A stretch of 24,000 nt of DNA from an uncultured Pseudobdellovibrionaceae bacterium (GCA_964636785.1 CAZWVK010000009.1:1-24000); one strand, 5' to 3'; counted from the first letter of the stretch, positions 5,098-24,000 are shown. Translations and numbers: made by a program. Notes: generated by a model not told the origin, from the sequence alone.

Positions 5098-5451
5098 GGG
5101 GGCGACATGGCTTCGACGTGGGTCGTGAAGCTTTGGGAGCATGCAGGGGCGCACGAGGTCCTCTATAAAAACGTGCAAATTTGTAATTGGCAACGATTAC
5201 GCACTTGCTGCCTAATTTAGCGTAGCACACGGATCCGGTGTCGCGAGGACGGACCCGGGGAAGTGTCATTTTAGTCCTCTCGTCTTGAAGCTGTTTTCTC
5301 CAGGGCTTTAAGATTAAATTTTCTGGGGGACGGGTTAGAGAAAGTTTGTCGCTCGACGTTTTCTAACCTTAGTTAAAAGAGTGACTAAGCATGTAGCCGC
5401 CCAACAGTGAATCACTTGCGGACGAGGGTTCGATTCCCTCCGCCTCCACCA
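5098..5451 (+). ncRNA. ssrA: tmRNA (transfer-messenger RNA)
   Basis: 5' end GGGGGCGACATGGCTTCGACG and 3' end GGACGAGGGTTCGATTCCCTCCGCCTCCACCA. tRNA-Ala-like acceptor stem GGGGGCG/CGCCTCC with the G3:U identity pair, T-arm GGGTTCGATTCCC, and an encoded CCA. An internal tag reading frame ends in ...YALAA. Confidence 0.92.
5189..5215 (+). other. tmRNA tag-peptide reading frame, GNDYALAA*
   Basis: GGC AAC GAT TAC GCA CTT GCT GCC TAA, with the canonical C-terminal YALAA degradation tag. Choosing GGC as the resume codon is my inference. Confidence 0.7.
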
Positions 5452-5504: not shown

Positions 5505-5855
5505 TCAGAGTCGGGATTCGGAAGAATGCCCTTTTTTCCAATTGGGCGAATCCTTCAGATTCGAATTTACAAGCTTATAAAGATTTGCGCCGAGAGCATC
5601 CGCTTTCGCGAGCAAGTCTTTATCTTTCAAATCCATAAGTTCAAAAATGGTTTGGCACTCTCTAAGTGATCCATATGCCATATGAAAGAAGTTTCGTTTC
5701 TCACGAGCCGAGCCCTTCGCGTTTCCTTCGGAAAGATTCAATGCAATCGAGGTCGAAGCTCTGTTGAGCTGATCTTTGAGATGGCCCTTAAACTTCAGCT
5801 TTGCAGTCAGCTTGCTAAATTCAATGGCCATATCCAATGTCCGGAATGATTTCAT
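5505..5855 (-). CDS. Four-helix-bundle protein of the '23S rRNA intervening-sequence protein' / Avd-like family
   Basis: 116 aa. Family pattern ...LKDQLNRASTSIALNLSEGNAKGSAREKRNFFHMAYGSLRECQTIFELM... AAGGAG lies 6 nt upstream of the ATG. Confidence 0.8.
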   Translation of the reverse strand: MKSFRTLDMAIEFSKLTAKLKFKGHLKDQLNRASTSIALNLSEGNAKGSAREKRNFFHMAYGSLRECQTIFELMDLKDKDLLAKADALGANLYKLVNSNLKDSPNWKKGHSSESRL

Positions 5856-9081: not shown

Positions 9082-9288
9082 ATGAGCAAAACAAAAGCTA
9101 TTAGGCTTACCGATGCCGAGGAACGGCGAATTCAGGAATTCTTGCGCCTCAATCCCTTCTTTGACTTTTCATCTCTGGCTCGAACTGCGATTCTAAAATT
9201 TATAGAAAACCCGGAGCTAATCCTTAGGCCGGTACAAAAATCAAAAAAATCATATCAATCGAGTAGGCAAAAGGAGATATCTTTGTGA
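9082..9288 (+). CDS. Small ribbon-helix-helix (CopG/antitoxin-like) DNA-binding protein
   Basis: 68 aa. KAIRLTDAEERRIQEFL...FSSLARTAILKFI fits the strand-helix-helix pattern of RHH proteins. The stop overlaps the next gene's GTG (GTGA). No obvious SD sequence. Confidence 0.55.
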   Translation: MSKTKAIRLTDAEERRIQEFLRLNPFFDFSSLARTAILKFIENPELILRPVQKSKKSYQSSRQKEISL

Positions 9289-10715
9289 AGAACATTGATA
9301 GTCAGGACAGACTAAACAAAGTCATCCCGTTATTTCGAAACGCTAAGCCAGAGCCGTTTATTGAGAAACTAGCGGTGAGTTCTCCAAAGCCTGGAATAGG
9401 CGCCATCGAACGAGAGATGCGTGAGAAACTCGGTAAGCTAAAGGACTGTCGTTATCCAGATACCTTTGATTGGGGCGTCTATGATCGAATTGCTAAAAGA
9501 TATGGTGAGAATCAGCCTCGGGGCGGTGTGGTTTTTAAGACGACATTCAAGTTAGTCAATCATCATTCAACTTGCAATAAATGCCACCAAGCTTTTGAAA
9601 TCGATAGTTATGGCCGAGGTTGTATTCATAACTGTGTTTACTGTTATGCCAAAGATCAACTGACTACGCACGGGTTCTGGAACCGACCGATGCCGTTTCC
9701 GGTTGATTTGAGTGAAGTCAGAAAAATCATGTATACAGTTTTTGAATCTGATAAGCCTTCAAAGTGGAGAAATATTCTTGCGCGACGGGTGCCACTAAGA
9801 ATTGGCTCCATGAGTGATTCGTTCATGCACATGGACAAAAAGTACGGCGTAACAAAAGAGCTTCTTAAAATCCTAAACTACTACGAATACCCACATATTA
9901 TATTTACGCGATCTGACCTTGTTGCGGATGATGAATATCTGAATATTTTGAACCGTGATCTGGTTTCAGTTCAAATGTCAATGTCTGGAAACAACGAGCA
10001 TCTTCATCGTTTGATCGAGCCAGGTGCGCCCAGCATTCAGCGAAGGCTCACTGCTCTCAAAAAGCTAGCTGAAAATAACTTTTGGACGACAGTAAGAATT
10101 AATCCTATGTTCCCAACCCACCCAGACGGGTACTACACGGATAAAGCTAGTGTAGTCGAACGTTTCGGCAGTCTTGAGAAGGTGCCGACGTTCGACCTCA
10201 TGAATAGTGAGTTTATTGATCAACTGAAAGAAGCCAAAGTACCAAGTTTGCTTGCAGGATTTGTTCGTTTATCCTCAAAAGCGATCAATTCAATGTCCGA
10301 GGTGACGGGCATCGATTTGAGATCTTTTTTCAAACCTGAACACTTGGTGGGGCAGGGTGATAAACATTATTCAGATTCAGAAATTGCATACTATTACTTT
10401 AATTTAAAGAAAGAGACCGCCAAACGGGGTATCCGATTTAATACTTGCTACATAGGCAATGGTCAGAAGGACTTTTATCAGTACCAATCGCTTTGGGATA
10501 ATAAGAAAGACTGCTGCGATGCGGTTGGAAATGTCGGTTCCTTCACTACGACAAGTCAGACGATTCCTTGGGAAGAGCGATTGAAGCATGCGCCCAGTAA
10601 AGAGCATGCATTGAAGTCAAAATCGCAAGAGGAAGAGTACGATGAAAAGTTTGATTTCACGAATTCCATGAGGCGGAGCACTCAAAAAAGCGATTCACCT
10701 GAGGTGCAGGTTTGA
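9285..10715 (+). CDS. Radical SAM protein of the SplB / 'DNA repair photolyase' (COG1533, Rv2578c-like) type
   Basis: 476 aa. CxxxCxxC cluster GCIHNCVYCYAKD (C113/C117/C120, nt 9621-9644). Downstream family pattern RIGSMSDSF...IIFTRSDLVADDEYL...VQMSMS...IEPGAPSIQRRLTALKKLAE...VRINPMFP. GTG start with AAGGAGA 7-8 nt upstream. Confidence 0.85.
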   Translation: MKNIDSQDRLNKVIPLFRNAKPEPFIEKLAVSSPKPGIGAIEREMREKLGKLKDCRYPDTFDWGVYDRIAKRYGENQPRGGVVFKTTFKLVNHHSTCNKCHQAFEIDSYGRGCIHNCVYCYAKDQLTTHGFWNRPMPFPVDLSEVRKIMYTVFESDKPSKWRNILARRVPLRIGSMSDSFMHMDKKYGVTKELLKILNYYEYPHIIFTRSDLVADDEYLNILNRDLVSVQMSMSGNNEHLHRLIEPGAPSIQRRLTALKKLAENNFWTTVRINPMFPTHPDGYYTDKASVVERFGSLEKVPTFDLMNSEFIDQLKEAKVPSLLAGFVRLSSKAINSMSEVTGIDLRSFFKPEHLVGQGDKHYSDSEIAYYYFNLKKETAKRGIRFNTCYIGNGQKDFYQYQSLWDNKKDCCDAVGNVGSFTTTSQTIPWEERLKHAPSKEHALKSKSQEEEYDEKFDFTNSMRRSTQKSDSPEVQV

Positions 10716-11125
10716 AAACCATCCCGGGCATTAATGTGCAGTGGCCATGGAGCGAACTTTTGATCTCAGGAAAAAAAACGGTCGAAACGAGAACGTATCC
10801 ATTGCCAGAAAAGTATATTGGAGTAGAGCTCGCGTTAATTGAAACACCAGGTTCAAAGGGGAAAAAGGAAGCTGGGATCAAAAAGGCGAGAGTAATTGGA
10901 ACAATAACCTTTGGTGAAGCTTTTAAGTATAGAACCGAATCCGAGTGGAAAGGAGATGAGCAGCGACACCTGGTAGACACATCGGACCCACAATTCTCCT
11001 GGAAAAAGAGAAAGCAAAATGTTTGGGGTTGGACGGTAATCAGATTCAAGCGTTTTAAAAGAGCAATTCCCGCGCCCAATAAGCGCGGGATTGTATTTGC
11101 AACCTCTTGTAAAGTTAGTCCCTAA
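10712..11125 (+). CDS. ASCH (PUA-like fold) domain protein
   Basis: 137 aa. N-terminal INVQWPWSELLISGKKTVETRTY matches the ASCH signature (xQPWaxLIxxGxKTxExR). TTG start overlaps the radical-SAM stop (TTGA), with GAGGTG upstream. Confidence 0.7.
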   Translation: MKTIPGINVQWPWSELLISGKKTVETRTYPLPEKYIGVELALIETPGSKGKKEAGIKKARVIGTITFGEAFKYRTESEWKGDEQRHLVDTSDPQFSWKKRKQNVWGWTVIRFKRFKRAIPAPNKRGIVFATSCKVSP

Positions 11126-14100
11126 TTGAAACTCGCTCGCCCATCCATACAACTAAATTTCGATATCCCATCGCCGCGAGAGCAGACTGCATGGTACACC
11201 AGGTCTCCCAGCTTTCTTTAGTCGCCATGATTTCTGGACCATGCACCAAACAGATCACAGTTCCATCGTCCGAGATCGCTATTGGATGAAATGCCTTCTT
11301 TAGATTGTTTAGTGCATTCCCAAGAATCAATGTGCGCGGATCGTCGATTTCATCTAGATCGACGGGTGAAAGTTGATAAAAGATAGTCTGTTTGCTCAGG
11401 CCTAATTCCAGACGTTTTTTGGTTTGATCATCAACTATCGACGGAATAGCGAAGAGTTTCTCTTTCCTTTTAAAAATATCTAGAGGCTCAGCGCTTGAGA
11501 TCATATCTTTTAATATTTCTAAGGGCCCTGTTTGTGAAGGCCAGTGCCCTGGTACCCACATGACTGACCAGCCGCGCTTTGCTAAAAAGTTTCGCTTTTC
11601 TATGTCTGCCAGGAATTTCTCTCGATGATGTTCCCAGCCATCGACGAATAGTTGAAGTTTCCGTCTGCCGCTTTCAATCTGGAAATCCGAGACCGTTACA
11701 AGTCCTTCAGAAGGATCTCGAAATTCCTGTTGAGTTTTATATTGAATTTTAGCCTCTTTAAGCCATTTACTAAAAAGTGTCTCGGCACCGCTTCGTTCGT
11801 CGGTCTGTTGCCCAAGGCCGATGTCGATCGCTTTCCAATTCCCAGTCTTAAGAGCTTCAAACAGGATCGGCTTCCCATCTATAAGAAATACGGATTTGTC
11901 AATATGGGCATGATCCCACTGGTTGTCATAGCTTTTGAGACAGCGATAACAGCCTTTTTCACAACAGCTTTTACTGATTAGCGATGTACACTCGTCAAGG
12001 ATTTGATCCCAGTAGGTTTCGATCATTGGAATAATGCCGCTGCCCCCACGTTCTGTGTCCAGTATGAGAATTTCAAGCGAGCTTACTTGGGGATCTTGTC
12101 CATTGGCAGTAGGTGCCATTATACGACGTTCAGTAATCTCTAAGTGGTTTGCACGCTTATTGAGACGCAAAACTTTCTGGGTGGCTCGTTCAAATGTGGC
12201 TGCAAGTGTCTTGTAGAAAATATTGTGAGCTTCGGTATGGCCATCAGGTAATCCTTGCACCCATTGGTTGTACCGGGCTGAAGAAATTGGAAGACGTAGG
12301 CGTATTCCCGGGCAATCAGTTTGAACCGCAGGGAAGAAGGGGCGCCACTGTGCCCTTGTCGCCGCTGGCGGCGGATTTAGTCTTACACCGAACGATGAAC
12401 TTTCAGATTTTTCACGCCAGAGGGCGGTTTGTGAATTGCCTGAGACTGCAGAGTCTCTTCGGTGTATGATTTGTAGTACCCGAAAGCTGTTTTCTCTACT
12501 CATATGAAAGTGCATTTGTATGCTTTGGTCTGTAGTGAGGGCCTTTGAACTATCATTGTTTGGAGCGCCGATAAGTTTTAGATCAGCTGTGAAATAGTTC
12601 ATCTCTCGGCGGCTTGTAGAATCTGAAATGACATTTCTCTGGGAGCCATGAGCTTCACGTATTTCTATGAGTTCTGGCCTCACACTGTCACCATCTTCTC
12701 CAGCGCGTATTACAGGGCTCTGACATGATGGGCATTCTTCTGAACCTGGAGGTATAAGTTCGGTGCATGTATTGGAACAAACGCCCCAGCCGGTAGTTGT
12801 TAAATTCGCATTTTGGGCGCTGATGTACCTTTCCACTTCATAAATCCAACCGTGACCATATATTTTCTGCTCAGGTGCAAATTCACGTAGTGCTACAGTG
12901 GCGGACCGGTCATATTTTAATAGGTCCATATATTTATTTTCCGAGTTCCCATAATTTACTCTGACACCCCTGAATCTAGTTACCCTTCCAGGAAAATCAA
13001 AATTAGGTAGAAAGCCGCTAGCCGCCATATCACTTATAGGTTGTGGTTTGTCAAAATTGCGGCCAATCCCAAGATATAATTTCGAAAAATATAGCGCCCT
13101 AGAGAGCGCACGCTCAAGACCTTTTCGCTCATCTTCATTCATCCGGAGTCTTTCAAGGCCACTTTTTGAACCCAGAGTTTCAACTTCATTTAAATAAATA
13201 TCGAGCAATGCTAAATACCCATTCAGCTCAGAAGCGAAAGTGTCTGGCCAACTTGTAATGTCAGCCTTTTGGCGGAGTTCTGAGGCTAAGGTATTTACTG
13301 CTTCGGACTTTAACGATGGTTTCCAAAGATGAGTCGAAGTCAGGTTTATAAAGTCATCTATCATTGACTGAATTAAATTTTTTCGCGATTCATAAATTTC
13401 TCGCCAATTCTGAGGTGCGGTGGGAAGTCCGGCGATTTCATCTCCCAATAACGCTTTGGCCTTCTGAAAATGGTTACTTAGATCGACTAACTTGTCCCAC
13501 CTTGAAAGCTCAATCGAAGGGACGCCGTCTATTGGTAACCCCATGGCCTCCAGGATAAGACCATTCAGGTGCCTGGCTATGATAAACGTATTTTCAATTG
13601 GCATACCCGGCGGTAAAATTTCACCGGAGGCCATATCTATCGGATTTTCAAAGAAAGTCATATCGTGGCTACTAAAACCACAATATGTAAATATCATTGC
13701 ACGCTTAGGCCCACGGCCGGCTCGACCCGCACGCTGGGCATAATTGCTTGCGTCAGGGGGAACAGAGCGATGAATTACCGTGGGCAGATCGGGTAAGTCG
13801 ACCCCCATTTCAAGAGTAGGCGTCGCAACAAGTGTATTAATTTGGCCCTTTACAAATTTGTTTACTGCTTCATTTTGATCTGCGGCGCCAATCATTCCAT
13901 TGTGCTCTCTTGCTGATACCAATCGCGCCTCTGACGAAAGTGGTTGATGATAGAGCTTTCTGTAATACTCATGTGGGGGATTTATAACTTGTTTCCAAGT
14001 GTCCCCAGGTTTTTTGCCAGTCATTGCTCCTTCAAAGTCATGTCGAAAAGCTGAAACGCGCCACGCACCCGTATAGGCTGACCGCCATAACTTCGGATTT

Positions 14101-17100
14101 GGCACTATTAGCAGTGATCCGCTGACTTTTAAAACAGGATTGTCTTGTTCAGCGCTTGATAAGAACAGACATTTGTTTAAAGGACTCTTTGTGATGAATT
14201 TCACCCAAGTGTCTTTTTTTGCCCAAAAGGGGAGTTCTGCCTCTAAAGCGCCGAGTTGCATAAGTAGGCGCCCAAGTCCCGAGTTTTTGGATATTTTGTT
14301 TTGATTCTTTGCAGATTGGCCTAAAAGATCTTCGATACTTGGACGAATCTGCGCTGACCATAATCGACTCAGAAACTGGTTAGCAGTGTTGCCATCGATA
14401 TCCCCAAGAGCACCTTTGGTTGCCAATTTCTCAATTAACCAGTATCCAATTAGAAAAAGTGCGCGACCACTAAAACCAAAATCAGGGTGAGTGGCAGCAA
14501 ATTCCTCAAAAGACTCTTCATTAAAATCAGGAAAATCCCACGTAGCGAGTCCGAGGGTCTGTAGACCTCCCTCTCTCACCTGAACCGCAGTCACGTCTAA
14601 AGCGATGACATCTGTTAGAAGCTCCAGGACGAATGTGCCCCGGTCGGAATCGGCTAGCAGGTCGAAATCCTCATCTGTTTCAGTTGTACGGCTTTGTGAA
14701 TCACTAATGGTGTAGTTCTCTAATAGCCATTCCCTCAAGGCACGCTTTCTCGAATCGGGATTGCGGTTTTTGAAGTCTGTCTGGAGAACCTCCCGTGGAA
14801 TTAGGTTTTGAATGGTCTGCTTACGTATCCTAAAAGATTTGGGAAGGCTAGCACTACGATGAACTAATTCGCCTGATTCCACACTCATTAAGAGGCGAAT
14901 TGCAAAATCATACTTGAACGATTCCGGTAGCCGTTCGTCCGTAGCAATGCGTTTTTTCAATAACCACGGTTCTTTGTCATTTGCATCCTGATTTGCTTTC
15001 AAAAAGCTAGCAACGGCTCGACGCAAATTAAGCCTTCTATGACGATCAGTCAAAAATCCCGAAAGAAATGAAGTTTCCTGTCTGTTGTCACAGAAAATTA
15101 AAAGCTTCCGCTCTTTGTTGTCACCTTTAGGTGAGCCGTCATATGAAATTTTTGAAAGGAGACTGGCTGAATGAACGGAAAGATCAATTGATGCACTACT
15201 TCGGTGCGTATTAATTAGCGGTCTTTCGTCAGAGGTTTCCCCACAAGCAGGACAACTATGAAAATCTGAAGCCTCTGCTTTTTCTTTCTTGCCATTGGTA
15301 ACTTTGGTTTTAATCCGGCTGTAGCGCACCAATATCGTGGCATCTGAATTTTTTGATTTGCCATAGGTGGCGATTAGATGTTTTCCAGAGGTAGAAAGCG
15401 TATATTCATGCCGCTCCCAACCAGAGGGTAGATGTTGGCCATTATTTGGAATAGTTTCTGGATCATGTAGTACTGCGGCTTCGATCCCGCCACTAAGTGC
15501 TTCCTCGTCAAATCGCTCTGGTAGGTTGATAATTTTAGACTGTTCGGCACCTTCTCCATCCTGAGCAATCATCAGGCCCGCAAATGCACTGTGCCCGCAC
15601 TTCCGACAAGAAACAAAATTCAGCGCTTTTTTGTCTGAATTAGCCAGCGATTCATCATCAAACAATGTCTTTCTATCCAGTGACCAGTACACTCGCGGTT
15701 GCGCGCGGCCAAATAAGTGATATCGAAGACCTATTGCCGGAAATATTTCATTTTCAAAAGCGTGGCTACAAAGTATTAAGAGTGCTTCTAAAAGATGTGG
15801 ACTTCCACCGACACGGCCAGTAAATCGTGAAATAGCGATTTTTAGTGTAACCATACTTGATTCCTGACCTTGTTCGTCTTTCAACAGAACAGCCAGTAGG
15901 TGAGGCGCTATAGCTTTTGCCCAGGGATAAATTTGTTTGGCACAGGTGAGATAGTCTGAGGTTTCAATTTTGACGAATCGTTTTGCCAGTTTAAATAAAG
16001 ACTCTGGAAACATGGCTGAGAGATCTTCAGCAATGGCCTCAGCCGGGGCGGCTTTACAGGCTTCGAATACGCTCAGATCTGGGTTAACAAGTGCCTCAAA
16101 GCTATCTTTCAATAACCAATTTTCGCCCTCGAATGGACGACCAAAGAGTTTAGTGAACATATCTCGCATATCATGTTCAACTTTTTTCTCATCCTGATCT
16201 GGCCCTTGGCTAAGAGTTGCCGAGGTAGCAATTGGCACAAAACTTCGTCCACGCTCTCCAAGATGAACCTTGAGACGATTTAATAAGCATGCAATTTCCA
16301 AGGCCAACGTCCCGGTATAAGTGTGGGCCTCATCTAAAACTAAGTACTCCAGATTCATATCTTTAAAAAGTCGCTGATCAGATGACCTTAGAAGCATGTA
16401 TTCAAGCATCTTATAGTTCGTTAGTAGAATGTGGGGAATTGTCTCAGGTTTGGCCGGGTCAACGACCAGCGTACTTGGATCAAACAAAAGATTGTCGACT
16501 TCGATATCGGGGCGATCTGCTCGTAAGCGTTCTCGAATTTCTTTAATTTCTCTAATAATTTTTTCTTTGTCGGAAGTGTTAAGATCTTTAAAAGCACCGT
16601 TGTAGATTCCAACACGAATCCCGGTGCCTGCTGCATACTTAATAATTCGATAAAACTGATCGTGAACTAGCGCATTCATCGGATAGATAAATATCGCGCC
16701 AATTCCTTGCTTAGTTGGTCCGTAACCCTTCTTAAGGAGACCGTTGATTACTGGCAAAATAAAACTTTCAGATTTTCCAGAACCCGTTCCTGTTGAAATG
16801 ACTGTGCCTTTACCAGAATTAATTCTTTCCCAGGCATTAACTTGATGTGAGTAAGGTGTTCTTAGTTCTGGTAGCGTCCTTAATGTTTCTTGAAGCAAGG
16901 GGTGAAAGTCACCTAGGTTCGGATCTAGTCTTTGGCGAGTTCGCACCAACTGAAGCACTGGATCTTGAAAAAGTGCACCTTCTTTTTCCATAATTGCACG
17001 AAGTTGTCGGTCTAATTCAAAATTTCCATTCTCAGCAAATGGGAACTTTGAACTTACATAGTCGATGAAGTCGCTTCGTAATTCACGAGAAAGATTAAAG

Positions 17101-17108
17101 GGTTGCAT
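11115..17108 (-). CDS. Giant (1,997-aa) DEAD/DEAH-box helicase fused to a DUF1998 (MrfA-type Zn-binding) domain and a C-terminal DUF559/Vsr-like endonuclease domain; DrmA+DrmB-like / DruE-like / Hhe-like
   Basis: Helicase motifs: PYSHQ, TGTGSGKSE (aa 106-114), YPMNALVHDQ, VLDEAH (aa 257-262), ATSATL, LLIFCDNRQ (aa ~669), VATPTLEMGVDLPDL, QRAGRAGRG (aa ~1125). DUF1998-like region at aa ~1361-1745: FLPNFDFPG, CSNTC...CPSC, GGSGIIP...CCEKGCYRCLKSYDNQWDH. Nuclease motifs at aa 1773-1852. The ATG lies 3 nt after the stop of the upstream methyltransferase. Confidence 0.9.
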   Translation of the reverse strand: MQPFNLSRELRSDFIDYVSSKFPFAENGNFELDRQLRAIMEKEGALFQDPVLQLVRTRQRLDPNLGDFHPLLQETLRTLPELRTPYSHQVNAWERINSGKGTVISTGTGSGKSESFILPVINGLLKKGYGPTKQGIGAIFIYPMNALVHDQFYRIIKYAAGTGIRVGIYNGAFKDLNTSDKEKIIREIKEIRERLRADRPDIEVDNLLFDPSTLVVDPAKPETIPHILLTNYKMLEYMLLRSSDQRLFKDMNLEYLVLDEAHTYTGTLALEIACLLNRLKVHLGERGRSFVPIATSATLSQGPDQDEKKVEHDMRDMFTKLFGRPFEGENWLLKDSFEALVNPDLSVFEACKAAPAEAIAEDLSAMFPESLFKLAKRFVKIETSDYLTCAKQIYPWAKAIAPHLLAVLLKDEQGQESSMVTLKIAISRFTGRVGGSPHLLEALLILCSHAFENEIFPAIGLRYHLFGRAQPRVYWSLDRKTLFDDESLANSDKKALNFVSCRKCGHSAFAGLMIAQDGEGAEQSKIINLPERFDEEALSGGIEAAVLHDPETIPNNGQHLPSGWERHEYTLSTSGKHLIATYGKSKNSDATILVRYSRIKTKVTNGKKEKAEASDFHSCPACGETSDERPLINTHRSSASIDLSVHSASLLSKISYDGSPKGDNKERKLLIFCDNRQETSFLSGFLTDRHRRLNLRRAVASFLKANQDANDKEPWLLKKRIATDERLPESFKYDFAIRLLMSVESGELVHRSASLPKSFRIRKQTIQNLIPREVLQTDFKNRNPDSRKRALREWLLENYTISDSQSRTTETDEDFDLLADSDRGTFVLELLTDVIALDVTAVQVREGGLQTLGLATWDFPDFNEESFEEFAATHPDFGFSGRALFLIGYWLIEKLATKGALGDIDGNTANQFLSRLWSAQIRPSIEDLLGQSAKNQNKISKNSGLGRLLMQLGALEAELPFWAKKDTWVKFITKSPLNKCLFLSSAEQDNPVLKVSGSLLIVPNPKLWRSAYTGAWRVSAFRHDFEGAMTGKKPGDTWKQVINPPHEYYRKLYHQPLSSEARLVSAREHNGMIGAADQNEAVNKFVKGQINTLVATPTLEMGVDLPDLPTVIHRSVPPDASNYAQRAGRAGRGPKRAMIFTYCGFSSHDMTFFENPIDMASGEILPPGMPIENTFIIARHLNGLILEAMGLPIDGVPSIELSRWDKLVDLSNHFQKAKALLGDEIAGLPTAPQNWREIYESRKNLIQSMIDDFINLTSTHLWKPSLKSEAVNTLASELRQKADITSWPDTFASELNGYLALLDIYLNEVETLGSKSGLERLRMNEDERKGLERALSRALYFSKLYLGIGRNFDKPQPISDMAASGFLPNFDFPGRVTRFRGVRVNYGNSENKYMDLLKYDRSATVALREFAPEQKIYGHGWIYEVERYISAQNANLTTTGWGVCSNTCTELIPPGSEECPSCQSPVIRAGEDGDSVRPELIEIREAHGSQRNVISDSTSRREMNYFTADLKLIGAPNNDSSKALTTDQSIQMHFHMSRENSFRVLQIIHRRDSAVSGNSQTALWREKSESSSFGVRLNPPPAATRAQWRPFFPAVQTDCPGIRLRLPISSARYNQWVQGLPDGHTEAHNIFYKTLAATFERATQKVLRLNKRANHLEITERRIMAPTANGQDPQVSSLEILILDTERGGSGIIPMIETYWDQILDECTSLISKSCCEKGCYRCLKSYDNQWDHAHIDKSVFLIDGKPILFEALKTGNWKAIDIGLGQQTDERSGAETLFSKWLKEAKIQYKTQQEFRDPSEGLVTVSDFQIESGRRKLQLFVDGWEHHREKFLADIEKRNFLAKRGWSVMWVPGHWPSQTGPLEILKDMISSAEPLDIFKRKEKLFAIPSIVDDQTKKRLELGLSKQTIFYQLSPVDLDEIDDPRTLILGNALNNLKKAFHPIAISDDGTVICLVHGPEIMATKESWETWCTMQSALAAMGYRNLVVWMGERVSIRD
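11553..11792 (-). other. DUF559/Vsr-like PD-(D/E)XK endonuclease domain within the giant helicase (aa ~1773-1852)
   Basis: SGAETLFSKWLKEAKIQYKTQQEF...VSDFQIESGRRKLQLFVDGWEHHREKFLADIEKRNFLAKRGWSVMWV. This reproduces the DUF559 order S-x-x-E ... Q ... DF ... VDG-x-x-H ... D-x-x-(K/R)-x-x-x-L-x-x-x-GW. Confidence 0.65.
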
Positions 17109-17111
17109 TTG

Positions 17112-20100
17112 TTATGCACTCCTCTTTTTACTACTAGATCTACTTGTGTTCTGAACCTCTGTATTTTGGTTGCTATCATCCTTCAGTTTAAAGATTGGTG
17201 TATGGTCAATTTGTCGTAATGACTTGTCCTTAGAATATTCATCATAAAATTTTATGATCATATCGACGTATTCGGGACTGTTACGCTTTAATGTGTCGAA
17301 TTGATTTTCGAGAATCCAAATCAGGTTTTCTCGGCCCATTTCTGGTTGGTTTATACCATAGTGATGCCAGATCAATGCGTCCACTCTCGCACGATCAGCA
17401 TCTGAAATGGTGGTCTTCTCGATTATTCTAACCGCTTTGACGAGAAACATGCTCTTATAATTTGCGATTGGTAAACAGCTGACCGCTTCTTCTGTCATTC
17501 CATTTCCACAAGTAAGCTTAGCGAGAAAGTCTAATGGCAATGAGCTTAGAATTACAGCTAGGGAGAGCAGATTTTTAGGAACGTCAAGAGCATATGCTTT
17601 GCCATTTATGTAATACCCTTTTGGAAGAATTGACACCATAAATGTTCTTTGATTACCCGATCTGGTTAGACTCCGCCATGCGATTTTTGGACGCTCAATA
17701 TTAATTCCTCTTGTGGATAGATGTTCGCGCTTCGCATAGTATTCTATTGGTGAGTCAGTTGAGGTTAATAAATGATTAATATCCCTACCTCTCAGCATAG
17801 GTATCCAGTTGCCATTTTCTTTTTCTAGCTCTCTGGGTTCAATCTTGTTAGTAAATTCGCAGTATCCCTTTTTGGGTCCAGATGAGTGGTTAATTCCTTG
17901 TCGCACCACGCGTTCGAGTTCGGAAAGATAGGCGACCGGCCCAGATGCATTGTGAATTGCGGCAGCCACAGAGACTTGTGTGTTACTAATTAAAGCGGGA
18001 ATTGCAAGCGTAGCAGCAGAGAACTTTTGCAACTGTTCAAATGAGAGCTCTACAGGGAAATATGTAGCTATTGGATTTCGTGAGTCGATTGCAACTGAAA
18101 TGGTATCTAGGTCATTCGTTTGGACCACATTGTTGACGAAGATAGGATTCGACGTTCCGGCCTCTCTGGCAATCACATTACATGTAAACTCGAAGTAAGA
18201 AGGTATTTCGAATATAGAATGAGTATTCCTAAAGTTTACGCTCTCACGAAGCAGCCGCTCTCGAATTAAAAGACGGCGTAAGTCTTTCGTACCTGAATTT
18301 GAGAATATTGCGTACCGTGTAACTAATAAGCCCAATCTTCCCTCGTGATTTATCTGGCAATAGGAAAGTATTGAGAAAAGCACGGATAAATCAATTTTAC
18401 CTTCAATTTTAGCTTCGATTTTTTTTGTACTTTGCCATAATGTCGTCAGTCCCTTTGCGGATCGGTTTTTAGTGAAAATTTCTACCTCGCAGTTTGGCTC
18501 TATTTTGATAAGGCCCTTTCGTCTTTGGGGTTTCTCTGCAGCTTTCAATGAAAGATATTGTGGATCGTAGATTGGATACACGTCTTTGTCTTGAACCCCA
18601 ACTACACCCCATGGTGGGTTTGATATTATTGCGCTAAAACCAGAATGTTTAGGGCTTGCAAATACTTGTGCAAACTCGATATGCCATTGGTAAAAGCGGT
18701 GTTCTCTTGAAACCTTGAATGCAGCTTTAAGTGATTGAAATGCAGATTTTGAAAGTGTTCTCTTTTTCTTTTTCGAGGTACGCTCCAGGGTATTATTATC
18801 TAAAAGATATTCGGTTAGTTCCTTCAAAATTGATAGAGTTGGAAAGCATTTCATTTCATCCACAGGCCAAAACCATTGAGCACACCACAAATCGCCTAGG
18901 GCTTTTAGACGAGCGAATGCACGTTGGTATCGGACCATTTTCTTATAGCCAGTTGGACCATGTTCGTTAATTAGCACTTCTTTTCGTGCGGCTTCGAGTC
19001 TCGTATCAATTTCAATGCCTTCTGCCTCAATTAGCACATCATCGAGTTCGGGAATCCAGGCAAGGCGGTCTCTATGTCTCAGCTCTAAGGAGTCTACAAT
19101 CTCGCCTCTTTTTTGAATTTTCTCAAATTCAGTGACGGCCTTTCGTGCGAGTTGGAGCATCTTGCTCAATTCAATTTGCATCTTAATTGCCCAGTCGGCC
19201 CAGTTCTCATCACCGAATGTTTGGCGCTCATTTCTGAGTTTTGATTTTAATTCGGAGATTTGTTCTTTGATATCGTTGGAGGTGGCTTTTCTGCGGAATG
19301 CTTTTTCTTTCACATCCCAGGCCTCAAAGATCTTTTTGTCAATATCTAGTGCTTCCGTGAAGATATTAAAAATAGATGGAAACTCTGTATGTCCATCCCA
19401 GCTGGTTTTTGATTGGTTAAGATAGTCAGCATAGATGAGCGAGTTTCCTGATTTTAAACGATGATGTAAAAAGGGGAGAGGTTGACCTTTTACTAATGCT
19501 TCGAGATAGAGCGACGTTCTACACAGCTCAAGACTGAGTGGATTCAAGTCGACTCCGAAGAGGCAGTTTTCAAGGATTTGTCTTTTACATTCCTGAAGGT
19601 CGTCGAAAGTGGTATCGCGACCTCGAAGTGTAATATCTTTCTCTCGAACCTTTGCTTTTAATAGCTCTTGACCAAGGTAGCGTAGAGTTGCGATCAAGAA
19701 CCCGCCAGAGCCTACTGCGGGTTCAACGATTCGCAGGTTTAAAATATCTTTGGCTGATTTGCCTTCAACAAGTGGCTTAAGGGTTCGTTTGACTAAAAAT
19801 TCTGCTAGCTTTGGGGGCGTATAAAAACTTGCGGTCTGGCGTTTTTGGCCACCAAGTGGTGCTACGATAAAGGTCCCAGTAGTCGGATTAAATCCGGGTC
19901 TCTCTTGTGAAATATAAGTTTCAAGTCTTCCGACTGCGGCACCTCGTTTACGTTTTTTTCGTGTCGTTCGTAAACCAGACATTTCCGTTGATTCAAACTC
20001 GGTCATTTCAAGTGCATCGGCCAATTTTCTCGAAACGAGCCCAACTCCGCCTCCATGGGCCGGTACCCATAGAGACTCTTCACGAACTATAACGGGCTTT

Positions 20101-21527
20101 TGTGCAAGTAGCGCTTCATAAACTGCGCCTAATTGTTCTACACCGAGATTTCCAAAATGTAGTCGTCTTCCGGACTCTTCGCCTCCAACACGTGTCAGTG
20201 TCAGTAAAACCTGCGCAATTGCATTATCGCGAAGCGCGGGCCCTTCATCAAAGGTAGGAGCTTGGTCGGGTGCGAAGAGTTGGCCGTTAAAAGCGCTGAC
20301 AAATTCACCACCAGAAAGCTTTACCCCACGTCGAAGTAATGTGAACAAACTTTCAAATGCGCCCCAAAGATAGGTCCCATCAGGATCGGCGTGGCCTTGT
20401 CTTTCGCGTTTAATAAAATCTTCTGCCCAGTTTCGTAGATGTTCTACACTGTAGAACGAGGCGTATTGTGGATTTTCGACAGGCAGGAATCTCCTTGCTT
20501 CTGCATAAAGGATGAATAGAACCCTGTATAAAACAAATAGACCATCTTTGAAAAGTTGATGGGCAATTCTCTCGTTCTGATTTTGATTTTTTGATTTCTG
20601 CTTTAACGCTGGGTCAACGTTTAAACGCTCGTTGATGAGAATTTCCAAAGCTAAGGTGACTTGTTTGTGTAGGTCTTCTGTGATTTTCCTGGCCTGCTCT
20701 AGATCCTCACGAAATAGCATGCTCGAAGCAGTGGCTTTGGTTTTAACTGCGGCACCAGAAGCCTCTTCTTCGTTTTCTTCGGACTCCTCTTCGGCAGCTT
20801 CATTTTCATCTTCCGCAACCGCCTGTTCTTCTGAACATGAATATGCGAAGAAATCCGAACTTAAAAGGTGAGTTGCTAGACTTAATGCTGAGTCATTGTC
20901 ATCGAGCAGAATCTCCGTCCAGCGTATTTCTAGGTATTGACCAGCCGTTTGGCTTTCAGATCTGAAATAATAGGCTGAATGGGGCAGAAATAGTACGGCC
21001 TCTGCGCAGCCGGCTGCTTTGATCAGGCGCTCAACCTGTTCTGAAAGAGTTTCCTTTTTGTTTGGCTGATGTGTTCTTTCACCTGTAGCCGTCGTCAGGT
21101 GAAATCCCGAAGAATCTACATCCAGTGGAATTTCGTCTTCACCGGCGAATAGAATAGCTACCGAGTGGCTAGAATTGGGAGACCTTAAGTAAGATAAAAA
21201 ACCTTCGCCGTCCCAGTGAGGAATGCTTTCATGAACAAAATCTGAATAGCCGAAATAATTTTTTAGTGTTTGAAACCACTCGTTAAGTAGCTTTCGGCGT
21301 TTCTCAATATGTTTAGAATTCGCTTCCTTCGTTTTTGCTATTTTTTGATCGAATTCTCTGTACTGATCTCGAAATGCGCGTAGTCGCTCATTTTGATGCT
21401 TCTTGATAATGTAGGTAAACGCATCGCCACCAACGAATTGCAATAATGTTTCGTCGCTTAGGAAGCCATTTCGGGGGTCAATGCCCTTTAGTGCCGCGTG
21501 TGATCTTTGTAATTTATGTGCTGCCAT
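17112..21527 (-). CDS. Large (1,471-aa) gamma-class N6-adenine DNA methyltransferase of the PglX / DrmMI / type IIG-like family
   Basis: FYTPPKLAEFLV (aa 568), RIVEPAVGSGGFLI (aa 599-612), FGVDLNPLSLELCR, SGNSLI, then FYQWHIEFAQVF...FSAIISNPPWGV (NPPW aa 970-973, nt 18609-18620). Family-typical helical region LFKDGLFVLYRVLFILYAEARRFLP and FGNLGVEQLGAVYEALL. A ~500-aa C-terminal region may be a target-recognition domain. Confidence 0.9.
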   Translation of the reverse strand: MAAHKLQRSHAALKGIDPRNGFLSDETLLQFVGGDAFTYIIKKHQNERLRAFRDQYREFDQKIAKTKEANSKHIEKRRKLLNEWFQTLKNYFGYSDFVHESIPHWDGEGFLSYLRSPNSSHSVAILFAGEDEIPLDVDSSGFHLTTATGERTHQPNKKETLSEQVERLIKAAGCAEAVLFLPHSAYYFRSESQTAGQYLEIRWTEILLDDNDSALSLATHLLSSDFFAYSCSEEQAVAEDENEAAEEESEENEEEASGAAVKTKATASSMLFREDLEQARKITEDLHKQVTLALEILINERLNVDPALKQKSKNQNQNERIAHQLFKDGLFVLYRVLFILYAEARRFLPVENPQYASFYSVEHLRNWAEDFIKRERQGHADPDGTYLWGAFESLFTLLRRGVKLSGGEFVSAFNGQLFAPDQAPTFDEGPALRDNAIAQVLLTLTRVGGEESGRRLHFGNLGVEQLGAVYEALLAQKPVIVREESLWVPAHGGGVGLVSRKLADALEMTEFESTEMSGLRTTRKKRKRGAAVGRLETYISQERPGFNPTTGTFIVAPLGGQKRQTASFYTPPKLAEFLVKRTLKPLVEGKSAKDILNLRIVEPAVGSGGFLIATLRYLGQELLKAKVREKDITLRGRDTTFDDLQECKRQILENCLFGVDLNPLSLELCRTSLYLEALVKGQPLPFLHHRLKSGNSLIYADYLNQSKTSWDGHTEFPSIFNIFTEALDIDKKIFEAWDVKEKAFRRKATSNDIKEQISELKSKLRNERQTFGDENWADWAIKMQIELSKMLQLARKAVTEFEKIQKRGEIVDSLELRHRDRLAWIPELDDVLIEAEGIEIDTRLEAARKEVLINEHGPTGYKKMVRYQRAFARLKALGDLWCAQWFWPVDEMKCFPTLSILKELTEYLLDNNTLERTSKKKKRTLSKSAFQSLKAAFKVSREHRFYQWHIEFAQVFASPKHSGFSAIISNPPWGVVGVQDKDVYPIYDPQYLSLKAAEKPQRRKGLIKIEPNCEVEIFTKNRSAKGLTTLWQSTKKIEAKIEGKIDLSVLFSILSYCQINHEGRLGLLVTRYAIFSNSGTKDLRRLLIRERLLRESVNFRNTHSIFEIPSYFEFTCNVIAREAGTSNPIFVNNVVQTNDLDTISVAIDSRNPIATYFPVELSFEQLQKFSAATLAIPALISNTQVSVAAAIHNASGPVAYLSELERVVRQGINHSSGPKKGYCEFTNKIEPRELEKENGNWIPMLRGRDINHLLTSTDSPIEYYAKREHLSTRGINIERPKIAWRSLTRSGNQRTFMVSILPKGYYINGKAYALDVPKNLLSLAVILSSLPLDFLAKLTCGNGMTEEAVSCLPIANYKSMFLVKAVRIIEKTTISDADRARVDALIWHHYGINQPEMGRENLIWILENQFDTLKRNSPEYVDMIIKFYDEYSKDKSLRQIDHTPIFKLKDDSNQNTEVQNTSRSSSKKRSA

Positions 21528-21535
21528 TTAATGCC

Positions 21536-24000
21536 TCATTGATTGATTAGTAGTGCGCATATTTGATACTGGGTTTGTTCGGAATCTACAGACCAGATGT
21601 CTTCAAGCCAGATCGCACGCTCCTTCATTCCTGGCTTTGACTGATCAAAAGTTATTTGTTCCTTTACATAAGCAGATTTCTTTTCATTAAATTCGGATGC
21701 CAGAGTTGAGGCGAAGGCTTTAGTTTCTTTTTCAAGAAAGCCATGCAGATCCTGCCATTCCGTCAATCTTGGAAGTTCCTTTGGTTGGCCAGCACTTTCA
21801 ACTACGTCGAGCTCGTAGCCTTCAATACGTTTACAGTCTTTGACCGAATATGAACGCATTTCCTGTGCAACGATTCTTCCGGAAGGTGCACGAGAGGTCA
21901 TTTCTACTACGACAATCGCTTTAGCTGGCGCATTCTTAACACCGAATATTGGGTAATTTTGCCTTGCCATCGTATGACGAAAACGTGCCTCAGCTTGTAG
22001 AACGACAGGATGTACGGGACCCATAAACTGAAGTTCCCTTTTGGCGTTGCCGCCTTCACGCTTGAATTTCTCATAGTTCAAATAGTGATCAGGGCTGAAC
22101 GTGACTCGCCAAGGGTTGCTCTCACCCGGATATCCAAATCCTTCAATGAGCAGACTAGGGATAGACCAGCCTTTGGGTAAAATTAAATCACATTCAAATT
22201 TTGAGGATCCTATCGGACTCAGTGAGCCTCCAAGTTCAGTAACCATTAGGTCAAATAGTGTCCGTCTTTCATGATTTTCATCTCTCCTTGTTGTCGGAGC
22301 TGGAGTGAGCGGCGTTACACTCGTTGCATCAAGGCCAAATTCTCTTAAGTATTCGATTTGGTCATCGATTTCTTTGTTGATAACCTCTAGGTCGTCACTT
22401 TCAATTGCGGCTTCGAGTTTGTTCAAATCGAGACTTTCCAGAATTGGACTTACAGATCCAAGTGCACTTTGTGCGGCTTCAATTTTCTTATGCAATTTAC
22501 TCATTACACGCTGATCAGGTGTAGCTTTAAGGTCGAGAATTAAATTTAGAATAACCGGAATTTTGGCCTGGCCTAATCGATCTATGCGACCATTCCTCTG
22601 TTCAATTTTTACCAAGCTCCATGGGAGTTCAAAATGAATTAGGTGATTACAAGCGTGCTGCAGATCTTTTCCTTCTGAAATTGTGTCAGTAGCTATGAGT
22701 ACTTTCAGATCTGAATTCGGATTTGCAAAGTTATCTTCAATTTCAACTCTGTCGAGTGCACAGGTAGAGCCATGTATACAGGTTACGTTTGTTTCCTTGA
22801 GGCCGCCTTTGGTCGTAAGGTAATCTGCAATAGCTTCTTGGGATTTGATCGCTTCTGTGAAAACCACAATTTTAGATTGAGAATCAGATTTAATTATACC
22901 ATTAATTTCCTGGCAAAGACGTTTGAGTTTAGCAGAGTCCTTTTTGTTGCAAAGCTTCTCAATTTTCTTTTTCGTTTTTTCAGAGAACCAGTCACTTAGA
23001 CGACTTCCTGAAGATATTGTCTCAAGAAATGCTGGCCAGCTGGAAGATAGTCGTTTCCGAGCGACCTCTTCCAAAAGTCTGTCCCAAGACTCTGCTGACC
23101 CACTGCACTTCTGGGCCGCAAGTTCCTCAGATACCAGTTCGAAAACTTCAAGCTCGTCTTTCGATAAATCGGATTCTTTAATTTTCAGATCTTCGACTTT
23201 GCGGTCGAGAATATTTTCACCGTGTTCCTTAACGTGTCTCTTTAATCGACGTACTAGATAGGGACTGTTTTTATCCCATTTCACTGTTTTCTCATCAGCA
23301 AATTTAGGATCAAGAAGCGTAAGGAGACTTTGGAACTCCTTCATGGCACCAGTAAATGGTGTGGCTGAGAGAAGAATTAATCCAGGCGATTTATAAGCGA
23401 TTCTTTCTGCAAAGTCTCTTAAACGCGTTGATGTCCCGCCTTCATCTTTTACAAAATGGTGACACTCGTCGATCACTACGACGTCCCATTTTACATTTGA
23501 AAGAGGCTTTAGGTTTTCCCATCTCTTTGCGAAGTCGCGGGAGACGATAACTCTCTCTACAACTTCCCATGGATTTGTGACGCCTCTCTCTGAAAGGCGT
23601 TCACGTGTTGTACGATTATAGATCTCAAAGGCAAGACCAAATCTGTTGAAAAGCTCGTCCTGCCACTTTTCACACAAGTGCTGCGGAGCCACAATCAAAA
23701 CTCTATCTGCTCGTCGTCTGCGAGTGAGCTCAGCCAAAACAATTGCCGCTTCCGTGGTTTTTCCTAAGCCTACATCGTCGGCGATTAGAATTCGTGGAAA
23801 CGGAAGTCGGTCGACAATACGATTCCAAGGTTCGAACTGCCATTCTTTATATTCAATGGCGCAGTTCATCGCTGTCATGGGTGCTTTAGATATGGTTTGG
23901 GCTTCGATAGATGATCGCTTTCTTGCATTCAATGTTGGCCTAAGAAGTTTAGACTTTCGCAATTGCTCTTTTGTTGGTGCAGGACAAAAGGCGCTTGCAC
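21536..24000 (-). CDS. SNF2-family helicase (DrmD-like); 5' end uncertain, possibly beyond the window
   Basis: Motif I DDVGLGKTTEA, motif II VIDECHHF, SATPF, helicase-C region, motif VI QRNGRIDRLGQ. A ~290-aa C-terminal domain is unassigned. The frame stays open from 23962 to the window edge. Possible in-window starts are TTG 23962 or ATG 23878, neither with a good SD. The stop lies 8 nt before the methyltransferase ATG. Confidence 0.88.
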   Translation of the reverse strand, partial: ASAFCPAPTKEQLRKSKLLRPTLNARKRSSIEAQTISKAPMTAMNCAIEYKEWQFEPWNRIVDRLPFPRILIADDVGLGKTTEAAIVLAELTRRRRADRVLIVAPQHLCEKWQDELFNRFGLAFEIYNRTTRERLSERGVTNPWEVVERVIVSRDFAKRWENLKPLSNVKWDVVVIDECHHFVKDEGGTSTRLRDFAERIAYKSPGLILLSATPFTGAMKEFQSLLTLLDPKFADEKTVKWDKNSPYLVRRLKRHVKEHGENILDRKVEDLKIKESDLSKDELEVFELVSEELAAQKCSGSAESWDRLLEEVARKRLSSSWPAFLETISSGSRLSDWFSEKTKKKIEKLCNKKDSAKLKRLCQEINGIIKSDSQSKIVVFTEAIKSQEAIADYLTTKGGLKETNVTCIHGSTCALDRVEIEDNFANPNSDLKVLIATDTISEGKDLQHACNHLIHFELPWSLVKIEQRNGRIDRLGQAKIPVILNLILDLKATPDQRVMSKLHKKIEAAQSALGSVSPILESLDLNKLEAAIESDDLEVINKEIDDQIEYLREFGLDATSVTPLTPAPTTRRDENHERRTLFDLMVTELGGSLSPIGSSKFECDLILPKGWSIPSLLIEGFGYPGESNPWRVTFSPDHYLNYEKFKREGGNAKRELQFMGPVHPVVLQAEARFRHTMARQNYPIFGVKNAPAKAIVVVEMTSRAPSGRIVAQEMRSYSVKDCKRIEGYELDVVESAGQPKELPRLTEWQDLHGFLEKETKAFASTLASEFNEKKSAYVKEQITFDQSKPGMKERAIWLEDIWSVDSEQTQYQICALLINQ

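Follow-up and report, generated by a model that had tools for sequence, protein, structure and literature searches.

In this work we analysed a 24,000 nt stretch of DNA from an uncultured Pseudobdellovibrionaceae bacterium (GCA_964636785.1 CAZWVK010000009.1:1-24000; this whole stretch is referred to below as the window), which carries on its minus strand three co-directional genes for an SNF2 helicase, a long N6-adenine DNA methyltransferase and a giant helicase-nuclease (genes 1, 2 and 3). These have been labelled armA-, armB- and armC-like after the ARMADA anti-phage family, with which they are compared below (Table 1). An earlier note, made from the sequence of the window alone, had described the three genes as a single operon; open reading frame (ORF) calling confirmed the coordinates, with gaps of only 3 nt between genes 3 and 2 (17109-17111) and 8 nt between genes 2 and 1 (21528-21535), and the three genes are one real operon. 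A correction concerns gene 1, which runs past the edge of the window. The ORF call for gene 1 runs from 21536 to 23962, where there is a TTG codon; the reading frame is open up to base 23998, and a 78% identical orthologue in a Pseudobdellovibrionaceae metagenome-assembled genome (MAG; L001/L010) shows conservation that continues right to the window edge. The TTG at 23962 was therefore rejected as the start of the gene. The orthologue, from which the missing part was judged, is 891 amino acids (aa) long and 820 codons of gene 1 lie inside the window, which places about 70 codons of the predicted N-terminus beyond position 24000. Exact-protein look-ups with genes 2 and 3 returned no identical record.

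Table 1. Features of the window (AF2, AlphaFold2 model; pLDDT, predicted local distance difference test score)
Feature	Position	Strand	Remarks
gene 1, armA-like	21536-24000	-	BrxHII/RapA/DrmD-like SNF2 helicase; window edge cuts gene
gene 2, armB-like	17112-21527	-	1,471 aa, ATG start; PglX/DrmMI-like N6-adenine DNA methyltransferase
gene 3, armC-like	11115-17108	-	1,997 aa, ATG start; YprA-family helicase-nuclease
RecA1 (DEAD) domain of armC	16194-16865	-	Walker A (GTGSGKS) and DEAH; Pfam DEAD 1.1e-18
beta-rich insertion of armC	15207-15689	-	CxxC pairs C501/C504 and C619/C622; AF2 pLDDT 79
RecA2 (Helicase_C) core of armC	13689-13919	-	motif VI QRAGRAGR; Pfam Helicase_C 7.6e-14
OB-CON-DUF1998 "canopy" of armC	11904-13061 (approximate bounds)	-	inserted Zn module C1444...C1462 and cysteine cluster C1715-C1723
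Vsr/DUF559-type PD-(D/E)xK nuclease domain of armC	11532-11819	-	hhalign, invariant residues, AF2 pLDDT 86
clade-specific alpha/beta C-terminal domain of armC (~130 aa)	11118-11495	-	confident AF2 model
hairpin, GC-rich, possible bidirectional terminator	11068-11090	both strands	10 pairs, 7 G-C; consensus match only
three-gene neighbour operon	9082-11125	+	RHH-like ORF of ~65 aa, 476 aa SPL/PA0069-like radical SAM protein, 137 aa ASCH-like protein; convergent with armC
DUF2779 protein, 494 aa	6406-7890	+	Cas4-like PD-(D/E)xK N-terminus, RNase-H-like C-terminus
"23S rRNA intervening sequence protein", 116 aa, four-helix bundle	5505-5855	-	Pfam 3.5e-15; immediately after tmRNA gene
tmRNA (ssrA) gene	5098-5451	+	tag peptide GNDYALAA

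The SNF2 assignment of gene 1 rests on the motifs DDVGLGKT and DECHH and on Pfam matches to SNF2-rel_dom (2.5e-17) and Helicase_C (3e-18). In PADLOC the protein matches DrmD (5e-92) and BrxHII (6e-59), and in NCBIfam it matches RapA (1.4e-50), the best NCBIfam match being DISARM DrmD (NF038317) at a sub-threshold 334 bits, with a cut-off of 610. Gene 2 carries FYTPP (aa 568), EPAVGSGGF (aa 602, with GSGG at aa 606) and NPPW (aa 970) in the long PglX/DrmMI-like format that had been attributed to it, and matches Eco57I (4e-15) and N6_Mtase (3.5e-9) in Pfam and DrmMI (4.5e-77) in PADLOC. In gene 3 the motifs GTGSGKS (aa 107), DEAH (aa 259), QRAGRAGR (aa 1125) and the DUF1998 cysteine motif CCEKGCYRC (aa 1715), together with the Pfam domains DEAD, Helicase_C and MZB/DUF1998 (25.8 bits, cut-off 24.2), all lie in a single ORF. 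Its best PADLOC models are DruE3, DruE1 and DruE2 (2.9e-92 to 1.7e-65), with DrmA at 2.8e-9, and the likeness of this fused DrmA/DrmB-like protein to Druantia DruE that the note had pointed out holds. The note had also found no PLD-family (DrmC) ORF in the window; this holds, as the motif H.K....D occurs in no open frame of at least 100 aa in the window, and ten related loci gave no PLDc match.

What looks like a hybrid of DISARM and Druantia finds its explanation in the ARMADA family, which was published in 2025 (Bell et al., bioRxiv, September 2025; PMC12458937). ARMADA is composed of a BrxHII/RapA-like SNF2 helicase (ArmA), a PglX-like methyltransferase (ArmB) and a YprA-family helicase (ArmC), has no PLD gene, and shares two of its proteins with DISARM class 1; ArmC is closest to Druantia DruE, contains a fused OB-CON-DUF1998 module and ends in a Vsr-type nuclease, and in the published tree of YprA helicases the ARMADA proteins cluster with Druantia and away from DISARM (PMC12458937). 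The same set is found in the window: a fused YprA/DUF1998 helicase with a C-terminal Vsr-type nuclease, an adjacent BrxHII/RapA-like SNF2 gene, an adjacent PglX-like methylase with NPPW, and a helicase that neighbour-joining (NJ) trees put on the ARMADA side of the ARMADA/Druantia branch. The note had put the fused architecture forward as new, and this claim fails because exactly that architecture is already catalogued as ARMADA (PMC12458937), an outcome which the note itself had named as refuting.

Homology to the Escherichia coli proteins extends over all three genes. With the armABCD locus of E. coli EDL933 (z5899-z5902, taken from NZ_CP008957) as reference, the identity is 31% between gene 1 and ArmA (498 aa, E 9e-57) and 24% between gene 2 and ArmB (949 aa, E 6e-46), and gene 3 aligns with ArmC in BLASTP over aa 1-703 and 1064-1852 at 22-26% identity (E 3e-38 and 3e-34); the alignment of gene 3 with E. 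coli DruE is confined to the helicase motifs and the DUF1998 cysteines. The catalytic positions that were mutated in E. coli have direct counterparts in the window, G605 and N971 of ArmB corresponding to G606 and N970, and K110 and D234 of ArmC to K112 and D259. The nearest named relatives of gene 3, P0025 (GAA1966291.1) and P0058 (ROR02912.1), both bear the label "ARMADA Type I helicase" in the ARMADA paper's Table S1, and neither MCS6838637.1 nor MDW8191117.1 is among the 1,999 Type I rows listed of that table (PMC12458937).

Full-length relatives of gene 3 are rare, amounting to some 16 clusters among 5.8 billion proteins. Eleven loci of this clade were compared (ArmC identity 30-78%), and ten of them have all three genes; in the remaining one, L036, the contig begins inside armB, so that armB and armC are seen there. 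The gene order is armA-armB-armC in every locus, with a divergent armA in L004. The flanks of the cassette vary and include an integrase with type IV secretion system (T4SS)/conjugation genes, ThsB-TIR, AbiEii, GmrSD, WYL regulators and transposases; a conserved cassette in differing flanks fits a mobile defence cassette. Some loci have a further gene directly 3' of armC (of 364 aa in L010, of 145 aa in L011 and EcsC-like in L013); these genes vary from locus to locus and were not counted as parts of the system. In a Chromatiales MAG (L002, 9656-18045) an armA-like (48%) and an armB-like gene (44%) are followed by an unrelated 409 aa ORF in the place of armC, with the contig stopping about 240 bases past this ORF; the system there is either degraded or a variant of two genes.

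The domain architecture of gene 3 was examined with profiles and AF2 models. The helicase core and the DUF1998 module that the note had read from the motifs are both recovered by Pfam. The extent of the canopy was taken from the Pfam MZB match (aa 1675-1724), a census of cysteine motifs and the E. coli ArmC alignment, which spans the region. ARMADA helicases are described as having a BrxA-like domain after RecA1 and, inserted in RecA2, a beta-barrel zinc module and a MarR-like domain (PMC12458937). The model of the middle part (765 aa) is helical at aa 345-448, beta-rich at aa 474-634, where it has two conserved CxxC pairs, and helical again at aa 729-980. The beta-rich insertion (fragment residues 174-334, modelled as strands) lies at the site of the beta-barrel zinc-binding module of ARMADA/Druantia helicases, and both of its CxxC pairs are kept in all clade members and in ARMADA Types I and II. 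It should be noted that a Foldseek search of the whole middle model against PDB, the beta-rich insertion included, gave no significant match.

The Vsr/DUF559-like nuclease that the note had seen in gene 3 escapes Pfam at its thresholds, the sole Pfam match in the isolated C-terminus being MTES_1575 at E ~0.02. Profile-profile alignment with hhalign, however, matches the C-terminal profile of the clade to the C-termini of ARMADA Type I helicases that bear DUF559 with 99.0% probability (E 5e-18) and to the Vsr domain of Type II (E. coli-type ArmC) with 97%. Residues E1776, D1808, D1823, H1828, D1835 and K1838 are invariant across 15 clade members. The best Foldseek matches of the C-terminal model are the R2 RLE domain, Bax1, Hjc and RecU, all of them weak and all PD-(D/E)xK nucleases; searching the PDB sequences by hmmsearch with the C-terminal profile yielded nothing useful. 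Judged from profiles and residue conservation, the Vsr-type domain of gene 3 is real and homologous to those of both Type I and Type II, and it is predicted to be active.

The nuclease is followed by a further domain that is peculiar to the clade: of the 13 matches that the C-terminal profile has at E<=1e-30 in 1.84 billion representative proteins, all 13 reach into it. The idea that it is a degenerate second Vsr domain was rejected, since hhalign gave about 1% or less against both the Vsr core and the Type II extension; it shows no likeness to the Vsr core nor to the EEP/second-Vsr C-terminal extension of Type II. The ArmC proteins of the clade also lack the CxxC pairs at ~aa 1010/1029 and ~aa 1576 that are present in the sampled Type II and in most sampled Type I proteins.

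The relation to the two described types was addressed with NJ trees of 58 and 71 sequences (1,171-1,465 aligned columns, two distance measures, with and without outgroups, 100-200 bootstrap replicates), a distance method applied with a single DruE outgroup to a sample holding no BRIGADE or TALON sequences. The clade of the window is monophyletic with 100% support, as is Type II without it (100%), and Type I without it is monophyletic with 61-100%. Support for a grouping of the clade with Type II is 70-98%, and for one with Type I it is 0% (0 of 100-200 replicates). When rooted on E. coli DruE the clade falls among the ARMADA sequences, with four unclassified matches branching between the clade and the root. 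A group formed by P0067, P0076, P0109 and P0112, YprA-type helicases of ~1,600-1,740 aa (Pfam ResIII, YjiV_N), stands outside all sampled ARMADA types and, at a bootstrap of 100%, adjoins the DruE outgroup; candidates for its identity are Druantia III-B, BRIGADE and a TALON-like group.

Type II, known from E. coli NCTC 12900, ATCC 8739 and EDL933 (z5899-z5902), has the composition ArmA-ArmB-ArmC-ArmD, where ArmD, encoded directly downstream of armC, is a RelE-like domain fused to a GajB/UvrD-like helicase. The window shares with it the order SNF2, methylase, YprA helicase, a colinear ArmC with fused DUF1998 and Vsr, and catalytic motifs at matching positions. It differs in that its clade has no ArmD, its ArmB is ~170 aa shorter, ArmC identity is ~22%, and its ArmC has neither the two zinc modules nor a terminal domain like that of Type II. 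With three ArmD sequences as queries tblastn found no match in the window or in 13 clade loci (L001, L002, L004-L006, L010-L013, L033-L036), and the gene downstream of armC in the window, in the place of armD, is a convergent ASCH-like ORF. Gene 3 is not among the 120 best Type II clusters (at least 39% identity to E. coli ArmC, about 2,080-2,180 aa). With Type I, represented by Haloquadratum walsbyi PL100, Nostoc sp. HK-01 plasmid2 and Desulfosoma caldarium ROR02912.1, the window has in common a set of three genes and a single Vsr-type nuclease domain, and it is this type that holds its nearest named database relatives. The order A-B-C is documented for archaeal and cyanobacterial Type I, the typical bacterial Type I having the helicase gene first (PMC12458937), and we confirmed it on Haloquadratum PL100 and the Nostoc HK-01 plasmid. 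In contrast to Type I, the ArmC of the window is ~250 aa longer with an extra terminal domain, and a grouping with Type I was never recovered by NJ. The identity of gene 3 to Type I or Type II (21-24%) equals that of the two types to each other. Because of the NJ groupings, this equally low identity to both types, the missing CxxC pairs and the terminal domain of its own, the locus is probably an ARMADA of a rare separate lineage, Type I-like in gene content and sister to Type II. The novelty here is modest and consists of a rare ARMADA lineage without armD, without two zinc modules, with a clade-specific terminal domain and with a recurrent radical-SAM/ASCH neighbour.

We consider it likely, with a probability of roughly 0.82, that the locus is an ARMADA-family anti-phage system (armA-armB-armC) in one operon, belonging to a rare lineage distinct from the sampled Types I and II. 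The gene content, the domain architecture, the homology to E. coli ArmA, ArmB and ArmC and the conservation of the three-gene cassette across varied contexts support this directly. Its anti-phage function would follow from that of its relatives, E. coli Type II ARMADA having been reported to protect against phages (PMC12458937; 10.1101/2025.09.22.677730). Several points weigh against this assignment. The ARMADA systems tested with phages appear to be four-gene Type II only, with no three-gene system among them, and armD was found to be essential in E. coli Type II (PMC12458937), a requirement that was weaker in the EDL933 study (10.1101/2025.09.22.677730). Identity to the characterised proteins is low (21-31%), and the trees, being NJ on saturated distances, may mislead for such divergent sequences. 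The Foldseek search of the middle model did not confirm a BrxA-like domain, a feature which has been described as synapomorphic for the ARMADA/Druantia branch. Finally, methylation at a specific motif, a trigger and DNA cleavage by the nuclease are all ascribed to this locus by inference.

The note had read the locus as a divergent DISARM or a hybrid restriction-like system, and the kinship to DISARM class 1 on which this was founded is genuine: SNF2 helicase, long N6-adenine methylase and YprA-family helicase with a DUF1998 module are present in both, the logic of modification plus helicase-nuclease is presumably the same, and the PADLOC DrmD and DrmMI matches, the best NCBIfam match of gene 1 and the two proteins common to ARMADA and DISARM class 1 all point in this direction. 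A DISARM class 1 subtype in the strict sense, with DrmA and DrmB fused and DrmC swapped for another nuclease, is nevertheless highly improbable, as gene 3 scores 2.8e-9 with DrmA against 2.9e-92 with DruE, the DrmD score of gene 1 falls well short of the equivalog cut-off (334 against 610 bits), and neither a separate DrmB (DUF1998) nor a PLD-family protein was found in the window or in 10 related loci. In the window, helicase and DUF1998 form one polypeptide with a fused Vsr-fold nuclease instead of the PLD nuclease DrmC, and this helicase belongs to the Druantia/ARMADA branch whereas that of DISARM belongs to the DISARM/Dpd branch, in keeping with the published YprA tree (PMC12458937). A Druantia variant, in which a DruE helicase-nuclease recruited a methylase and an SNF2 protein in place of DruH or DruA-D, would account for the DruE models at the top of the PADLOC list for gene 3 and for its best PDB sequence match, 9tu7 (E 4e-49), a 2,108 aa DEAD/DEAH helicase which we take to be a DruE. 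Like DruE of Druantia type III (DruH-DruE), gene 3 codes for a giant ~2,000 aa YprA-family helicase-nuclease with a putative beta-barrel zinc module and a fused DUF1998, and engagement of single-stranded DNA (ssDNA) or junctions is probably common to ArmC as well (10.64898/2026.05.13.724758, 10.64898/2026.05.13.724313). We regard this variant as very improbable: DruE is the nearest PADLOC model because the PADLOC-DB of 2023 predates ARMADA, and DruE aligns at the helicase motifs while E. coli ArmC aligns over ~1,500 residues. Moreover DruE of type III bears PLD domains, in tandem, and not Vsr (PMC12458937), gene 3 has methylase and SNF2 partners, and tblastn of the window found no DruH, the other Druantia partners not having been searched by sequence. 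Since the operon holds three genes only, there is no place in it for the partner genes of Druantia I, II or IV; the four types combine DruE with DruA-D, with DruM/F/G, with DruH or with DruF/L, and the operon combines its helicase with an SNF2 protein and a methylase. Druantia IV, composed of DruE, DruF and DruL (PMC8565338), was accordingly rejected on gene content, and so was Hma (helicase, 5-methylcytosine (m5C) methylase and ATPase).

That the cassette is simply a housekeeping DNA-repair helicase of the YprA/MrfA type, a chance neighbour of an orphan methylase and a RapA-like transcription factor, is scarcely credible, even though the YprA family includes repair enzymes such as MrfA (PDB 6znp, E 7e-15 with gene 3) and RapA is a transcription-recycling factor; the tight spacing of the operon, the recurrence of the whole cassette in contexts that are unrelated (an integrase/T4SS element and defence islands among them), the size and zinc-module insertions of gene 3, which are typical of the "defence" branch, and the full-length homology to a validated ArmC all speak for the contrary. 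The note had also drawn a comparison with the Hhe system. Hhe, said to have been described by Gao and colleagues in 2020, is reportedly a single gene in which a superfamily 1 (SF1; DUF4011-type) helicase, HheA, is fused to a Vsr-like nuclease. The likeness proved superficial and Hhe was rejected, gene 3 being by Pfam a superfamily 2 (SF2) DEAD/YprA helicase inside a three-gene operon; no Hhe model is among the 25 PADLOC families shown for the window, beyond which there are a further 22 weaker ones.

The remaining alternative is that of a larger functional unit, in which the convergent operon with RHH-like, radical SAM and ASCH-like genes, perhaps with the DUF2779 nuclease, acts together with ArmABC, one possibility being that the added genes make, read or repair a DNA modification. 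In this neighbour operon Pfam finds Radical_SAM (1.9e-9) and a weak ASCH, NCBIfam matches are below the cut-offs and there is no PADLOC match; the small ORF is conserved, its RHH-like label being a reading of the translation made with no domain search. The operon goes unmentioned in the ARMADA paper (PMC12458937). In eight of the 11 clade loci (ArmC identity 36-78%), despite their different flanks, an ASCH gene directly adjoins armC at its 3' end, alone or together with the radical SAM gene. The DUF2779 gene recurs in four loci; it is near the cassette in L010, L011 and L013, where it lies directly upstream of armA, and L020 and L027 have it close to the radical SAM pair. When metagenomes were scanned with the radical SAM protein, 15 loci were obtained; in 11 of these the ASCH gene comes next after the radical SAM gene, and in metagenome loci the pair is again found beside Eco57I-family methylase systems. 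Against this, the pair is absent from three clade loci (L004, L005 and L036) and from four Type I/II reference loci inspected by annotated features (L014-L017), it is encoded on the opposite strand, and its metagenome neighbours include unrelated cargo (Type IIG Eco57I-family restriction-modification enzymes, a methylase with a PLD-SNF2 helicase and a YhcG nuclease, besides an ArmA-like gene and DUF2779). The conservation of the pair, 62-80% and thus far above that of the ARMADA genes, fits anchor genes beside a defence-island hotspot, and a conserved anchor pair of this kind is the simplest reading. We hold the larger unit to be unlikely. A bolder version is to our mind quite unlikely; in it the clade forms a third lineage of ARMADA, the sister of Type II, in which armD was lost or never acquired and the RHH/radical-SAM/ASCH operon serves as a functional accessory. 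If it were true, the accessory might for example recognise or process a modified base that Eco57I-family methylase systems produce, and the whole would be a five- to six-gene unit of a kind not yet described.

For the three-gene ARMADA system a mechanism can be proposed by analogy with its relatives. ArmB, being PglX/DrmMI-like, would write N6-methyladenine on host DNA and would also be needed for defence itself; in E. coli an NPPW mutant of ArmB loses protection (PMC12458937). ArmC may load where the DNA of an invading or replicating phage exposes ssDNA or has a duplex-ssDNA junction, as suggested by the recognition of ssDNA and junctions by DruE (10.64898/2026.05.13.724758, 10.64898/2026.05.13.724313) and by DrmAB, where a related YprA-family helicase engages ssDNA or junctions, forms a complex and has an autoinhibitory trigger loop over its DNA-binding site (PMC12458937). 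It would then translocate with ATP and cut by means of its C-terminal Vsr-type PD-(D/E)xK nuclease, which would stand in for the separate PLD nuclease DrmC of DISARM. The SNF2 translocase ArmA, which is RapA/BrxHII-like, probably acts on protein-DNA complexes by remodelling or clearing them, or else assists in the loading of ArmC. On the basis of E. coli, immunity is expected to be direct and not abortive (PMC12458937), and the lineage of the window would work without ArmD.

The lack of ARMADA in PADLOC-DB 2.0 (2023), together with the finding that no NCBIfam model (release 20, June 2026) matches the window system above its cut-offs, means that annotation tools keep reporting such loci as a partial DISARM and an orphan DruE. 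The Bdellovibrionota-associated clade, as the closest sampled relative of Type II, with no ArmD and with a different ArmC terminal domain, offers a natural comparison case, and it bears on whether three genes suffice for defence and on the contribution of ArmD. A lead of its own is the recurrent radical-SAM/ASCH neighbour, either as a possible accessory module or as a possible marker of a defence-island hotspot.

The immediate surroundings of the cassette show a few additional features. The armC gene and the ASCH-like ORF overlap by 11 nt (11115-11125), and the possible terminator hairpin, 25 nt beyond the armC stop, falls within the 3' end of the ASCH-like ORF, where the conserved PAPNKRG is encoded. 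At the other side of the neighbour operon, transfer-messenger RNA (tmRNA) genes such as the one in the window are classic and frequent insertion sites of islands; no integrase is visible in the window, and the stretch from the tmRNA gene to the ARMADA cassette could be an island. In L033 (17333-20003) a PIF1/AAA_30-type SF1 helicase of 421 aa is found between the ASCH-like and radical SAM genes, beside the ARMADA cassette. A WYL-WCX regulator of about 336-370 aa, which might control the island, is encoded a few genes past the radical SAM gene in L006 (19118-20230), L013 (20493-21512) and L034 (16472-17482).

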